NCBI GenBank assembly: GCA_038117265.1
Contig: JAYOFO010000003.1
Coordinates: 10,865 to 74,864, forward strand
Length of the DNA stretch: 64,000 bases
Origin: Rhodospirillaceae bacterium
GTDB lineage: Bacteria > Pseudomonadota > Alphaproteobacteria > UBA6615
Reading direction: 5' to 3'
The notes beneath the pieces are model-generated. The model saw nothing but the letters and a program-made list of their open reading frames with translations. It searched no databases and had not been told where the DNA came from. Each line of letters starts with the position of its first letter. The first letter of the stretch is position 1. The translations under genes were made by a program, and so were the position numbers. Below are positions 8,761 to 18,621 of the stretch, piece after piece.

Positions 8761-10137
8761 ATGACGATCCGTCTCTACAACACGCTGTCGCGCCAGAAGG
8801 AAGACTTCGCACCCATCGATGTGGCGAAAGTGCGCATGTATGTGTGCGGGCCGACCGTCTACGACACGATCCACATCGGCAATGCCCGCCCGCTGGTCGT
8901 CTTCGACGTCCTCTACCGGCTGCTGCGCCACGAATTCGGCGCCCGCCACGTCACCTATGCGCGCAACATCACCGATGTCGACGACAAGATCATCGAACGT
9001 GCGGCCGAGAACGGTGAGGCGATCGAAGTGCTGACAGCGCGCACCACCGACGACTTCCATGCCGCGACGGCGGCGCTCGGCTGCCTAGCGCCGGACGTGG
9101 AGCCGCGCGCGACGGCGCACATTCCCCAGATGATCGCCCTGATCGAGATCCTGATCGCCGGGGACCATGCCTATGCGGCCGACGGCCACGTGCTGTTCCA
9201 CGTGCCCTCGATGCCCGACTACGGCCGACTGTCGGGCCGCAACCGCGACGAGATGATCGCCGGCGCGCGGGTCGAGGTGGCGCCCTACAAGCGCGATCCC
9301 GCCGACTTCGTGCTGTGGAAGCCCTCGACCGGCGACCAGCCCGGCTGGGAGTCGCCCTGGGGCCATGGCCGGCCCGGCTGGCATCTGGAGTGCTCGGCGA
9401 TGAGCGCCCAGCATCTGGGCAAGTCCTTCGACATCCATGGCGGCGGCGTCGACCTGGTGTTCCCGCACCACGAGAACGAGATCGCCCAATCGCGCTGCGC
9501 GGACGCCGACGCCTCGTTCGCGCGCTTCTGGGTACACAATGGCTACCTGATGAGCGAGGGCGAGAAGATGTCGAAGTCGCTCGGCAACTTCTACACCGTC
9601 TCGGATCTGCTCGCGGAGTTCCCGGGCGAGGCGCTGCGCCTGGCGTTGCTCAAGACCCATTACCGCCAGCCGCTCGACTTCACCAAGGAGGGCGTGCGCG
9701 AGGCTCGCCAGGAGCTCAACCGGTTCTATCGGGCGCTGGCGCTGGCGGAGGGGGAGGTCCCCGACAGCGGCGCCGTGCCGGCCGACCTGGTTGCGGCGCT
9801 GGAAGACGATCTGAACACGCCGCTCGCCCTGACCGCGGTCCGAACCGCCGCCGACGCGGTGTTCGCGGCGCGCGATGAGGGGTCGGCTGCGGATGTGCAG
9901 GCGGCCGCGGGTGCGCTGAAGGCCGCGGGGCGGTTCCTCGGACTGTTGCAGGCTTCCGCCGAGGCCTGGTTCCGTGGCGGTGGCGACGCCGAGATCGACG
10001 CGCTCGTCGCCGAGCGGATCGCCGCGCGCGCCGCGAAGGACTTCGCGCGCGCCGACGAGATTCGCGACACGCTGGCCGCACGCGGCATCGTGCTGGAAGA
10101 CGGCGCGGGCGGCACCACCTGGCGGCGCGAGGGCTAG
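8761..10137 (+). CDS. cysS: Cysteine--tRNA ligase
   Basis: 458 aa with [16 protein letters not shown] (HIGH region) and KMSKSLGN (KMSKS). Confidence 0.95.
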
Positions 10138-10153
10138 GGGCGAGGGTTCGATC

Positions 10154-11743
10154 ATGGCCGAGCGCATCTACCTGTTCGACACGACCCTGCGCGACGGCGC
10201 GCAGACCCGCGGCGTCGACTTCTCCGTCGACGACAAGCGTACGATCGCGCGCGCGCTCGACGAGATCGGCCTCGACTATGTCGAGGGCGGCTGGCCGGGT
10301 GCGAACCCGGTCGACGACGCCTTCTTCGCCGAGAATCCGGGGCTGAAGCGTGCGTCCTTCACCGCCTTCGGCATGACGCGCCGGCCCGATCACTCGGCCG
10401 CGAACGATCCAGGGATCAACGCGCTGATCTCGACCGCCGCCGACGCCATCTGCATGGTCGGCAAGACCTGGGACTTCCATGTCGATGTCGCCTTCGGCAT
10501 CCCGCGCGCGGACAATGTCGCGATGATCGCCGACAGCGTCGCCTATGCCGCGTCGCGCAAGGACGAGGTGCTGTTCGACGCAGAGCATTTCTTCGACGGC
10601 TACAAGGCCAACCCGGACTATGCGCTGCAGTGCCTGAAGGCGGCGCTCGAGGGCGGCGCGCGCTGGGTCGTGCTGTGCGACACCAATGGCGGGACCCTGC
10701 CGCACGAGGTCTCGCGCATCGTCGCCGCGGTGCTGGAGCAGATTCCCGGTGATCGCGTCGGCATCCACACCCATGACGACACGGGGAATGCGGTGGCCAA
10801 CACGCTGGCGGCCGTCGAGGCGGGGGTCCGCCACGTGCAGGGCACCCTGAACGGGCTCGGCGAGCGCTGCGGCAACGCCAATCTGGTTAAGGTCGTGCCG
10901 AACCTGATGCTGAAATACGGCGGCGCCTACGAGACCGGGATCGATGCCGACGGCCTGCGCCGGCTCACCCATGTGTCGCGGTTGCTCGACGAGCTGCTCA
11001 ACCGCGCACCCGACCGGCATGCGGCCTATGTCGGCGAGGCGGCGTTCACCCACAAGGGCGGGCTGCACGTCTCGGCGGTGCAGAAGGATCCGTCTACCTA
11101 CGAACACATCGACCCGGCGGCCGTCGGCAACCAGCGCCACATCGTGGTGTCGGACCAGGCGGGCCGCTCGAACGTGCTGTCGCGGCTGGCCGAGGCCGGG
11201 ATCGACGTCGACAGCGCCGACCCGCGCATCTCGCGGCTGGTCGAGGACGTCAAGGCGCGCGAGTTCGAGGGCTATACCTATGACGGGGCCGAGGCGAGCT
11301 TCGAGCTGCTGGCCCGCCGGGCGCTGGGCAACCTGCCGAAATTCTACGTGATGGAGAGCTTCCGCTCCGAGGTCGAGCGGCGCTTCAACGCGCGCGGCGA
11401 CGTCACCACGGTAAGCCAGGCGGTGGTGAAGATGCAGATCGACGGCGAGCCGACGATGCAGGTCGCCGAGGGCAACGGCCCGGTCAACGCGCTCGACGAT
11501 GCGATGCGCAAGGCGCTGCTGCCGAAATATCCCGAGCTGGAGCAGATGCGCCTGGTCGACTTCAAGGTGCGCATCCTGACCCCGCAGGCGGCGACGGCGG
11601 CCGTGACCCGCGTGATGATCGAGTCCACCGACGAGACCGGTCAGCGCTGGGGCACGGTCGGCATCTCGCCGAATATCATCGATGCGGCCTACGAGGCGCT
11701 CGACGACGCCATCGTGCACAAGCTGTTGCGCGCACGCGGCTAG
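10154..11743 (+). CDS. cimA: Citramalate synthase / 2-isopropylmalate synthase family
   Basis: Starts MAERIYLFDTTLRDGAQ (HMGL-like TIM barrel) and has a C-terminal LeuA-dimer-like region. The upstream part of the track ORF (9974-) is an off-frame extension overlapping cysS. Confidence 0.85.
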   Translation: MAERIYLFDTTLRDGAQTRGVDFSVDDKRTIARALDEIGLDYVEGGWPGANPVDDAFFAENPGLKRASFTAFGMTRRPDHSAANDPGINALISTAADAICMVGKTWDFHVDVAFGIPRADNVAMIADSVAYAASRKDEVLFDAEHFFDGYKANPDYALQCLKAALEGGARWVVLCDTNGGTLPHEVSRIVAAVLEQIPGDRVGIHTHDDTGNAVANTLAAVEAGVRHVQGTLNGLGERCGNANLVKVVPNLMLKYGGAYETGIDADGLRRLTHVSRLLDELLNRAPDRHAAYVGEAAFTHKGGLHVSAVQKDPSTYEHIDPAAVGNQRHIVVSDQAGRSNVLSRLAEAGIDVDSADPRISRLVEDVKAREFEGYTYDGAEASFELLARRALGNLPKFYVMESFRSEVERRFNARGDVTTVSQAVVKMQIDGEPTMQVAEGNGPVNALDDAMRKALLPKYPELEQMRLVDFKVRILTPQAATAAVTRVMIESTDETGQRWGTVGISPNIIDAAYEALDDAIVHKLLRARG

Positions 11744-11833: not shown

Positions 11834-12838
11834 ATGTACGTTCGCTTGTCCGCATGCCTGCGCAAGCCGTTCCTGGCGCTTCTGGCGGCGATCGCCGCGG
11901 CCGCGTTCGCGGTGCCATCGGCCTTGGCCGATCGCGACCGGTAGGCGCAAGACTGGCCGAACACCGATTTCTCGCGCCACAGCGTCGACCTCGACGAGAT
12001 CTTCTCGGGCGGGATCGGCCGCGACGTCATCCCGGCGATCGACGATCCGACCGTCGGCGGGCTGGACAGGGGCGCCGAGGTCCACGACCCGCGCGAGCCG
12101 GTGATCCGCGTGAGCGTCAACGGCGCGACGCGCGGCTATCCGCTGTCGGTGCTGATCTGGCACGAGATCGTCAATGACGAGCTCGGCGGTGTGCCCATCG
12201 CCGTCACCTACTGCCCGTTGTGCAACTCCGCCATCATCTTCGACCGGCGGGTCGGCGACGTGGTGCTCGACTTCGGGACCACGGGGAACCTGCGCTTTTC
12301 CGACCTGGTAATATACGACCGCCAGACCGAGAGCTGGTGACAGCAATTCACGGGCGAGGGGATCGTCGGTGCGCATTCGGGGACGTCCCTGACGATGCTG
12401 CCCAACCGGGTGATGCCGTTCGGCCTGTTCGCGGCCGAACATCCCGACGCCGACCTGCTCGAGCGCCCGCCCTTCTTTCCGCGCAACTACGGGGTGAACC
12501 CGTATCACGGCTACGACACGGCGCCCGAACCGATGTTGCCCGGCCTGCCGCTGCCTGAGGGCGTGGCGCCGATGGCCTATGTCGTGGCGGTGGGCGACCA
12601 GGCCTGGACCCTCGACCTGCTGCGCGAGGCGAAGCGGATCGAGGCGGGCGACCTGCTGATCACCTGGGAACCCGGCCAGCTCTCGGTCCTCGACGTCTCC
12701 TACATCAAGGAGGCGCGCGACATCGGCTATGTCACGGTCCGGCGCCGCACCCCGGCGGGATATGCCGAGGCGCTGCACGACCTGACGTTCGCCTTCGCCT
12801 TCACCGCTTTCCACCCGGACGGAACGCTGCACAGGTAG
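11834..12838 (+). pseudogene. DUF3179 family secreted protein with two in-frame stops (TAG 11942-11944, TGA 12338-12340)
   Basis: One continuous frame holds a signal peptide (MYVRLSACLRKPFLALLAAIAAAAFAVPSALA), TAG, ...IPAIDDP...WHEIVND..VTYCPLCNS...DRQTESW, TGA, then QQFTGEGIVG... to the end. Confidence 0.75.
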
Positions 12839-16618: not shown

Positions 16619-17233
16619 ATGTCGAAGCGGCATTCCGCGAAATACAAGATCGATCGCCGTCTGGGCGAAAACCTCTGGGGCCGGCCGAAGAGCCCGGTCA
16701 ACCGGCGCGAGCACGGCCCCGGAGAACATGGCCGCCGACGCAAGAAGCCGTCGGATTATGGCCTCCACCTCATCGCCAAGCAGAAGCTGCGTAAGTATTA
16801 CGGCGACGTCGGCGAGCGGCAGTTCCGCCGCTACTACGACGAGGCCGTGCGTCGGCGCGGCGACACGGGCGAGAACCTGATCGAGCTACTCGAGCGACGC
16901 CTCGACGCCGTCATCTACCGGATGAAGTTCGTGCCGACGATCTTCGCCGCGCGCCAGTTCGTCAACCACGGCCACATCCGGGTGAACGGCAAGCGCGTGA
17001 ACATCCCGTCCTACCAGGTGCAGGACGGCGATGTGATCGAGGTGAAGGACAAGTCGCGCGAGATTCCGCTGGTGCTGGAGGCGATCGCCTCGAGCGAGCG
17101 CGACGTGCCGGACTATCTCGACGTCGACCTCAACAACCTCAAGGGCACCTACGTGCGCGGGCCGAAGCTCGCCGACGTGCCCTACCCGGTCCAGATGGAA
17201 CCGAACCTGGTCGTCGAGTTCTACTCGCTCTAG
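16619..17233 (+). CDS. rpsD: 30S ribosomal protein S4
   Basis: 204 aa, [26 protein letters not shown]..., with a C-terminal S4 RNA-binding domain. Confidence 0.97.
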
Positions 17234-17913
17234 CCGAGCAGTTCGCGCAAGCGTTTCAGGAGGCCGCCCCCGGGGTGGCCTTCTACCGTTTCGGACCTGG
17301 CGCCGCCATCGCTGCGCAGCGCGTCCAGAACGGCGTCGACGGGCGGGCGGCGGACATAGCCGCTTTCCGTGAAGCGGTGGCTGACGCGGCCCTGCGCGTC
17401 GAGCACGACGATCGCCGGGTGCGGCACCCCGTAATAGGGGCTGTCGGACGGGTAGTTCTCGTTCAGCAGGCCGAAGGCGCGGATCACCTCGGATCGCTCG
17501 TCCGACAGCGTCGGGAAGGCGATGGCCTTGCGGGCAGCGAAGCGCGCTAGCGTGGGAACCGCGTCGTAGGTGACGGTCGCGACCTCATAGCCCAGCGCGC
17601 GCACCTCCTCGATCCTGTCGTTCCAGGCGACCGCCTGGACCACGCAATAGGGTCACCAGGAAAGCGAACGCGAGAAGATCAGGATCAGGCCGCGGTTGCG
17701 CGTCAGCGCCCGGAAGTTGCGCACCTGGTCTTCCTGATCGGGCACCGAAAGGTCATGAGGCAGGGCCGTGCCGATAGCGACGCCCTTTTCGAGAGTGTCG
17801 AGCGGGCCGCGCGCCTGCGCGCCGGCCTCCGCCGCCGGCAGGAGCGTCGAAAGGAACATGGCCGCAAGCGCGGCGAGGAGCGCGGTGCGAAGCTGGCGGA
17901 TGCATCGGCGCAT
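17230..17913 (-). CDS. Secreted AhpC/TSA (redoxin, Prx-like) selenoprotein, Sec at codon 87 (TGA 17653-17655)
   Basis: Track ORFs 17653-17913 and 17230-17643 are in one frame and join as ...[26 protein letters not shown]... (WUPYC in place of WCPYC). Signal peptide present, RBS GGGAG, SECIS-like hairpin downstream. Confidence 0.8.
17623..17638 (-). promoter_or_regulatory. SECIS-like hairpin CCAGGC-GGUC-GCCUGG, loop at +24 to +27 from the U of UGA
   Basis: Perfect 6-bp stem with a GGUC tetraloop inside the coding sequence. Identical 16 nt occur at the same offset in the paralog. Confidence 0.7.
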
Positions 17914-17964: not shown

Positions 17965-18621
17965 CTAGCTTGCGGGCTGGCTCGCGCGTTCGAGGATCGT
18001 CTCGATCTCGGCTTCCGACGTGTAGCCGTGGCCGCCCCAGATGTTGGTGACGACGCCGTCGGCATTGACCACGACGACCCGGGGGTCGGCCGTGCCGTAA
18101 TAGCGGCTGCCCTCGGGGAACCGGTCGTTGAACAGGTCGAAGGCGCTGATCACCTGCTTGTCCGGATCGGACAGCGGCGGGAAGGCGATCTTGCGGCGTG
18201 CCGCGAAGCGCTTCACGGTCTCGGCGTCGTCAGCCGTGACGGACGCGACCTCGAAGCCCCGGGCGCGGATTTTCTCGATGTTGTCGTTCCAGGCGACCGC
18301 CTGGGCAATGCAGGTGGGTCACCACGCCAGCGAGCGCGAGAACAGCAGGATCAGGCCCTTCTTGGCCGTCAGCGCCTTGAAGTTGCGGACCTGGTCGGTC
18401 TGGTCGAGCACCGCGAGGTTGTGGGGGATCGCCTTGCCGATCGAATCGGCCTCGAGCGCGAGCGCCGCATGCGGCGCCAGAAATGTGAGCGTGCCGCCGA
18501 CGATAGTGGCCGCAACCGCGTGGCGCATTGCCTGGGCCCGCCGGCCGAAAACCTTGTGTCGCATGGCTTTTTGTATGCCTTCGCGTTCAATCGTGCTTGG
18601 GCACAGGATATGTTCCGCCAT
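17965..18621 (-). CDS. Secreted AhpC/TSA (redoxin, Prx-like) selenoprotein paralog, Sec encoded by TGA 18319-18321
   Basis: ORFs 18319-18621 and 17965-18216 are in one frame and join as ...LILLFSRSLAW-TGA-PTCIAQAVAWND... A signal-like N-terminus is present. The true start may be 18564 or 18528. Confidence 0.78.
18289..18304 (-). promoter_or_regulatory. SECIS-like hairpin CCAGGC-GGUC-GCCUGG (second copy)
   Basis: Same 16-nt hairpin at the same distance from the UGA as in the downstream paralog, although the flanking codons differ. Confidence 0.7.

Follow-up and report, generated by a model that had tools for sequence, protein, structure and literature searches.

Tandem genes for predicted Prx-like UxxC selenoproteins, with a conserved hairpin behind the UGA, in an uncultured alphaproteobacterium

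The minus strand of the stretch analysed here, 64 kb of contig JAYOFO010000003.1 from a Rhodospirillaceae bacterium (hereafter the window), carries two adjacent paralogous genes, termed gene A and gene B, whose reading frames are each crossed by an in-frame TGA at the first position of a C-x-x-C-like motif. We conclude that the UGA codons of both genes are very probably decoded as selenocysteine (Sec), and that the genes belong to an already predicted family, the peroxiredoxin-like (Prx-like) UxxC selenoproteins. The products would be a tandem pair of exported, periplasmic proteins with a PrxQ/BCP-like fold and a U-x-x-C active site. A first-pass annotation of the same DNA had read gene A as a case of Sec replacing Cys, and this interpretation gains support from the alignment of the TGA with a cysteine column, from a hairpin of the bacterial selenocysteine insertion sequence (bSECIS) type behind the UGA, and from the conservation of the TGA across many genomes. 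Gene B, with the same in-frame TGA feature, did not figure in that annotation. The coordinates of the features are summarized in Table 1.

Table 1. Predicted features of the tandem genes, in window coordinates
Feature	Position	Strand	Remarks
Gene A, predicted Prx-like UxxC selenoprotein	17230..17913	minus	227 codons and TAG stop; motif W-U-P-Y-C
Predicted Sec codon (UGA) of gene A, residue 87	17653..17655	minus	on first Cys of WCPYC in ~29 Cys homologues; TGA in all orthologues
Cys90 codon of gene A, partner of Sec87 in UxxC	17644..17646	minus	phmmer alignment to 2cx3, 2ywn
Predicted signal peptide of gene A	17824..17913	minus	basic N-terminal region, hydrophobic helix (modelled H2-24), A-E-A site followed by G, low-confidence linker
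bSECIS-type hairpin of gene A, CCAGGC-GGUC-GCCUGG	17623..17638	minus	starts 14 nt past UGA; loop starts 20 nt past UGA
Gene B, predicted paralogous Prx-like UxxC selenoprotein	17965..18564	minus	199 codons and TAG stop; motif W-U-P-T-C
Predicted Sec codon (UGA) of gene B	18319..18321	minus	context SRSLAW-TGA-PTC
bSECIS-type hairpin of gene B	18289..18304	minus	identical to that of gene A; also 14 nt past UGA

One reading frame across a cysteine column

Two listed open reading frames (ORFs), 17653..17913 and 17230..17643, had been taken to be one frame separated by a stop codon, and they are indeed the two halves of gene A. The frame contains a single internal TGA, in the context FSRSLSW-TGA-PYC. 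The coding bias runs past it as had been claimed, the GC content of third codon positions being 0.83 upstream and 0.90 downstream. The assignment to AhpC/TSA-like redoxins also held, since the read-through product spans the junction in the Pfam families AhpC-TSA (E 3e-20) and Redoxin (E 4.5e-13). Gene B, which lies 51 nt upstream of gene A and is 47% identical to it, matches AhpC-TSA with an E value of 2e-20, and the AhpC-TSA scores of both genes exceed the gathering score. The start of gene B is placed at the ATG at 18564 by inference from its orthologues, one of which (in locus L003) begins at the equivalent Met; an alternative ATG is present at 18621.

Gene callers divide both genes at the TGA in every assembly examined, leaving four ORFs, as the first-pass annotation had said annotation pipelines normally do with such genes. 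If these calls were taken at face value, each locus would hold two separate small genes, one for a secreted peptide that ends at the TGA and one for an independently initiated C-terminal protein. We regard this arrangement as very improbable. The split would fall inside the active-site motif of one AhpC/TSA domain, which is modelled confidently across the junction, and the first 12 codons past the TGA are conserved in frame. The sole start codon near the junction of gene A is a GTG 9 nt past the TGA, which is absent from the paralogue and the orthologues. Comparison of gene A, its paralogue and the orthologues gave no conserved start codon or ribosome-binding site after the TGA, in agreement with the earlier statement that the downstream half has no ribosome-binding site of its own. 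The called starts of the downstream ORFs lie at differing internal positions, namely V91 for gene A, an internal Met for L003 and MTYDG for L004.

A protein search returned ~29 full-length Cys homologues with N-terminal hydrophobic leaders and the conserved motif F-x-R-S-x-x-W-C-P-Y-C, and in their alignment the TGA column of gene A coincides with the first Cys of W-C-P-Y-C. The TGA had thus been correctly assigned to the first Cys of a CxxC motif. It had further been argued that a nonsense codon is unlikely to land on a catalytic Cys codon by chance; that argument is strengthened by the alignment, by the TGA of the paralogue and by the retention of TGA in every orthologue examined. The Cys90 column is likewise kept, both in the homologue alignment and in 33 codon-aligned genes of the Sec clade.

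The leader of gene A is predicted to be a signal peptide, from its sequence and model and from the comparable N-termini of the homologues. We also note that the leader of gene B, MRHKVFGRRAQAMRHAVAATIVGG (window ~18457-18564), carries an RR pair before its hydrophobic stretch; it could be a signal of the twin-arginine (Tat) type, unlike the leader of gene A, which resembles the type used for general secretion.

Conservation of the TGA and of the hairpin behind it

The scan of genomes, with one genome taken per species, gave 22 loci, all from metagenome-assembled genomes (MAGs) of uncultured Alphaproteobacteria or Rhodospirillaceae. Each MAG locus has one or two copies of the gene, and TGA stands at the motif column in all of the ~45 copies, which include those of several metagenome contigs. 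The closest protein matches are partial fragments whose contigs carry the same split genes, with DNA that reads W-TGA-x-x-C in each. The neighbourhood is conserved as well, and comprises purS-purQ-purL, bolA, grx, EamA, glyoxalase, gene B, gene A and a convergent rpsD. Metagenome DNA was scanned with the pattern TGG-TGH-N6-TGY-N6-hairpin, in which TGC and TGT were also accepted. All of the matches (132/132, in at least 120 contigs, many of them marine by name) carry TGA; as the hairpin was itself part of the pattern, the scan tells us that the hairpin always goes with TGA, not that the whole family always has TGA. Overall, more than 170 copies from independent assemblies have TGA in every case and never TGC or TGT.

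Several variants were encountered among these sequences. The motif W-U-T-P-C belongs to the second tandem copy of some MAGs (L004 11073, L011 4650, L012 11005, L017 4564), and the metagenome loci L031-L150 include W-U-P-H-C (30), W-U-I-Y-C (10), W-U-P-S-C and others, all with the same hairpin. The protein P0030 (131 aa; Logan/ENA) lacks the active site and ~75 residues, its sequence jumping to YYGVPHP, and is either a deletion variant or an artefact of assembly or gene calling. In the window, a palindromic CTAG at 17230-17233 closes both gene A and the convergent rpsD (16619..17233, plus strand), so that their TAG stops overlap by 2 nt with no intergenic terminator between them.

Substitution rates were compared on the two sides of the TGA. 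The median ratio of nonsynonymous to synonymous substitution rates (dN/dS) is 0.37 in the 45 codons before the TGA and 0.32 in codons +12 to +62 after it (~440 pairs, 33 genes), which indicates that the downstream half is translated in frame and is under purifying selection like the upstream half. These data bear on the explanation that the genes are pseudogenes, or that sequencing or assembly errors have turned TGC or TGT into TGA and so inactivated a Cys-type redoxin. Nonsense TGA codons do occur in this contig, and the related copy in L027 (~10130-10300) looks degenerate: it keeps the TGA and the hairpin, its second Cys has become Tyr (W-U-P-L-Y), it diverges after ~residue 120, and it is probably decaying. 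Nevertheless, the TGA recurs in both paralogues and throughout the independent assemblies, the selection on the downstream half equals that on the upstream half, and the TGA is accompanied by a conserved RNA hairpin. The conservation data effectively refute this explanation, to which we assign next to no probability.

An ordinary nonsense change is available for comparison 5 kb away, in a DUF3179 gene (~11945-12838, plus strand) with an in-frame TGA at 12338-12340 in the context YDRQTESW-TGA-QQFTGEG; the JGI contig L001 has this TGA too. Selenoproteins are known in the DUF3179 family, and the gene was considered as a second selenoprotein and rejected. Seven orthologues have TGG (Trp) at this position and the known Sec site of the family (UxxC/T) is Cys here (CPLC), so the TGA is taken as a nonsense change and not as Sec; on this comparison of sequences it would be one of a pseudogene, a population variant or an error. 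It stands in contrast to the TGA of genes A and B.

The UGA could instead specify one of the standard amino acids (Trp, Cys or Gly) in the absence of Sec machinery, by near-cognate suppression or by a lineage-specific reassignment. This is improbable in our estimate. In its favour, no Sec machinery was seen in the stretches covered (see below), the TGA of the DUF3179 gene stands where orthologues have a Trp codon, and the source gene caller of protein P0002 (L028, JGI 3300056864 Ga0568835_0231441) gives Trp at the TGA, as FSRSFDWWPFC. The DNA of P0002 reads TGA, however, and its Trp is therefore a translation-table artefact; apparently, the caller used a code-4 model on a short contig and produced a full-length but wrong public protein. 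The homologous residue is Cys rather than Trp. A UGA with the meaning Trp or Cys would be expected to give way to TGG or TGC in some of the sequences, and neither codon stands there in any of the more than 170 copies. TGA is also the normal terminator of 19 of the 51 long coding-like segments in the window and is thus not reassigned genome-wide. Finally, the hairpin behind the UGA fits the SelB-type SECIS model. We note in passing that stop usage in the 51 segments is rich in TAG (30 TAG, 19 TGA, 2 TAA), the stop with which gene A (17230-17232) and gene B (17965-17967) both end.

The window has two exact copies of the hairpin 16-mer and no others, one behind each TGA; 0.26 occurrences are expected by chance even if two mismatches are allowed. 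Published criteria for bSECIS elements comprise a loop of 3-9 nt, a stem of 4-16 bp, a G in the first two loop positions, a spacing of 16-37 nt and a minimum free energy (MFE) of -7.5 kcal/mol or lower (review PMC13188914). The hairpin agrees with all of them, having the 4-nt loop GGUC, a stem of 6-7 bp, a spacing of 20 nt and a ΔG of -10.1 to -12.8 kcal/mol (-10.1 for gene A), and the search for a SECIS element after the UGA that the first-pass annotation had suggested thus yielded a SECIS-type hairpin at the canonical distance. For comparison, the spacing in a Rhodospirillales fdnG SECIS is 19 nt.

Across 36 distinct sequences there is little or no variation in the loop and in four of the stem pairs. 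At pair 24-33, three sequences, each of a different paralogue group, have A-U in place of G-C, G-U wobbles occur in two further pairs, and the covariation score was reached by 0 of 500 shuffles. Among the metagenome hairpins, A4 goes with U13, the A-U double change being seen five times as against two A-C mismatches (Fisher p = 1.4e-6, uncorrected for phylogeny). The constraint is also visible in the codons. Those of the loop, Ala+7 (GCG) and Val+8 (GTC), are identical in 33/33 genes, whereas other conserved four-fold codons vary by 0.6-2.0 bits; the synonymous rate (dS) is 0.34 across the hairpin region versus ~1.1 elsewhere. The hairpin fixes the peptide QAV[AV]WN, which the Cys homologues do not have.

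Several observations weigh against decoding as Sec, or against what is built on it. Judged by MFE, shuffled sequences fold no less stably than the 69 nt past each UGA (z = +0.44 and +0.94), and the support for the hairpin is therefore that of conservation and covariation rather than of thermodynamics. Compensatory change is limited to one base pair, and this among related sequences. An alternative pairing of GGUGACC with GGUCGCC, which encloses the UGA, is compatible with 95% of the sequences. Searches of the window, of MAG flanks (~450 kb) and of metagenome loci (~590 kb) gave no tRNA-Sec, selA, selB or selD, although this says little because the stretches covered are small fractions of the genomes. 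Lastly, any assignment of a function (disulfide reductase or peroxidase), of an electron donor, of a substrate or of a reason for the tandem order is inferential.

The alternative pairing is not preferred, since its inner helix is frequently disrupted and compensatory changes are lacking. As to the machinery, ARAGORN predicted no tRNA-Sec in any of these loci, and a tblastn search with SelA, SelB and SelD probes (E. coli sequences, and Roseomonas sequences from PLSDB) matched only PrfC and CysNC. An Rfam scan of the window gave tRNA-Leu only, and no other recurrent in-frame TGA was seen in the ~450 kb of MAG flanks. Among Rhodospirillales, Sec decoding is a known trait.

Fold, active site and proposed mechanism

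The AlphaFold model of gene A has a mean predicted local distance difference test (pLDDT) score of 85.7, with values above 90 for approximately residues 45-185, and places an N-terminal helix (residues 2-24) before a disordered linker. The top Foldseek matches are Bcp4, BcpB, PrxQ and AhpE, with target-normalised template modelling (TM) scores of 0.80-0.87, and Tpx is also among the nearest solved folds. We also note that A-type proteins continue past a low-complexity linker into a conserved amphipathic C-terminal helix (gene A residues ~205-227, window ~17233-17300), represented in orthologues by GLLKRLRDLLG, GLLTRLFDLIS and NILRRLENIL; B-type proteins are without this helix.

Alignment by phmmer to BCP structures puts Cys90 on the peroxidatic Cys and Sec87 on the Thr/Ser of the PxxxT/SxxC motif. 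The first-pass annotation had expected the TGA column to be a Cys of CxxC and, among AhpC/TSA homologues, the resolving or the peroxidatic one. The former is borne out; the latter is not, as Sec corresponds to neither of the two when PrxQ/BCP structures are the reference. The remainder of the peroxiredoxin signature is not retained, in that the Pro of the motif is unaligned and the catalytic Arg has given way to His165 in gene A and, in gene B, to Asp or Val. Both genes score below the cut-off of every NCBIfam model. The scores are 53.4 and 51.2 bits for BCP (PRK09437; cut-off 140), 27-31 bits for the SelL-related model (NF040769; cut-off 120), 17-28 bits for the WAxxUGC ResA-like model (NF041054; cut-off 300) and 18-34 bits for ResA (cut-off 170). 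Because these values lie so far below the cut-offs, the two proteins are, as judged from sequence and model, a peroxiredoxin scaffold with a thioredoxin-like UxxC centre and not a canonical peroxidase.

The mechanism that we propose starts from the anatomy and conservation of the RNA element. SelB, together with GTP and Sec-tRNA(Sec), would bind the hairpin CCAGGC-GGUC-GCCUGG, with the result that the UGA is read as selenocysteine and not as a stop. By analogy with CxxC and UxxC oxidoreductases, Sec87 would be the exposed nucleophile that attacks a substrate disulfide or hydroperoxide. Cys90 may then resolve the mixed selenenylsulfide or the selenenic acid to give an intramolecular Se-S bond, which a periplasmic reductant would recycle.

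True selenoproteins of this kind might nevertheless act mainly as peroxidases, in which Sec87 is oxidized to a selenenic acid, as in glutathione peroxidase (GPx), and resolved by Cys90. The nearest folds are all peroxiredoxins, Cys90 occupies the position of the peroxidatic Cys, and the sources annotate the Cys homologues as peroxiredoxin. This is in contrast to the loss of the signature, where Thr has been replaced by Sec or Cys in addition to the changes at Pro and Arg, and to the low BCP score (53 bits against 140). A mainly peroxidatic role is given roughly one chance in three.

A more speculative and rather unlikely proposal is that genes A and B form an obligate-selenium periplasmic redox pair, as a relay or a heterodimer, that is specific to a clade of mostly marine or aquatic Rhodospirillales-like Alphaproteobacteria. 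If this were so, the lack of any reversion from Sec to Cys in more than 170 sequences would point to a chemistry beyond the reach of Cys in the oxidising periplasm.

Relation to known selenoproteins

The family to which genes A and B very probably belong is not new. The Prx-like thiol:disulfide oxidoreductase appears as a predicted bacterial selenoprotein family in the Sargasso Sea study of 2005, the Global Ocean Sampling (GOS) study of 2008 and the reviews of 2022 and 2026. The current reviews use the name "Prx-like thiol:disulfide oxidoreductase", families being named by domain and Sec motif. The GOS listing has it as "Prx-like 1, pfam00578, UxxC" with 225 sequences (PMC2398784), and the GOS dataset holds at least 67 sequences with W-U-P-Y-C. 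In BLASTP comparisons gene A aligns U on U with GOS reads 900765 (32%, E 4e-31) and 486929 (35%, E 2e-35, with one gap of one residue); one of these two Prx-like 1 reads has W-U-P-Y-C and the other W-U-P-F-C. The first-pass annotation was right in regarding Sec-for-Cys replacement in Prx-like oxidoreductases as a known theme, given that the UxxC arrangement had already been described for "Prx-like" selenoproteins, and for the same reason it rated the novelty of the find too highly. Genes A and B are two unannotated members of a known predicted selenoprotein family, and neither a new mechanism nor a new family. Modest novelty lies in the arrangement in tandem, in the host clade within the Alphaproteobacteria and in the unusually rigid SECIS.

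Genes A and B share with Prx-like 1 of GOS the pfam00578 domain and a UxxC rather than a TxxU centre, the family being defined by Sec in UxxC or UxxU as opposed to TxxU or UGC, and the published members have RSxDW-U-P-[YF]-C and a C-terminal GY-x-RP. The present clade differs in its own invariant SECIS, which forces QAV[AV]WN, and in its tandem paralogues, its conserved synteny and its occurrence in uncultured Alphaproteobacteria. QAVAWN, SWUPYC and the hairpin DNA of this clade are absent from the searched portions of the GOS and Sargasso supplements, which contain only more distant members. The selenoprotein Sec-Prx (TxxU) has the AhpC/TSA fold and Sec at the redox centre in common with genes A and B. 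There, Sec replaces the peroxidatic Cys, whereas in genes A and B it lies three residues toward the N-terminus, at the Thr position, and the peroxidatic position is Cys.

The best matches in both sequence and fold are PrxQ/BCP and AhpE (2cx3, 3hjp, 5epf, 5iiz, 1xvw). Unlike these, genes A and B have a predicted signal peptide and Sec, fall below the BCP cut-off and do not conserve the PxxxT/SxxC...R signature. Export, the motif W-[C/U]-x-x-C and matches to both AhpC-TSA and Redoxin in Pfam are shared with periplasmic thiol:disulfide oxidoreductases of the TlpA/ResA/CcmG type; the difference is that the ResA score is weak and that the structural neighbours are peroxiredoxins.

The hairpins also resemble the SECIS elements of the E. 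coli fdhF/fdnG type, which lie within the coding sequence just past the UGA and have a small loop that starts with G and a spacing of 18-20 nt. The loop of the E. coli fdhF SECIS is GGUC, the same as in genes A and B. The stem of genes A and B is in contrast a short, perfect helix of 6-7 bp without the bulged U, and binding by SelB is predicted.

Formate dehydrogenase was the sole selenoprotein seen in Alphaproteobacteria in early genome surveys, and the genes described here would extend the selenoproteome of uncultured members of this class past that enzyme. In every assembly examined the two genes have been reduced to four meaningless ORFs, and in one case the caller used the wrong genetic code. 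The signature W-TGA-x-x-TGY, followed by six further bases and the hairpin CARGCGGTCGYYTGG, offers a simple means to re-annotate hundreds of metagenomic genes. Genes A and B also provide a clean natural example of a SECIS that constrains the encoded peptide (QAVAWN).

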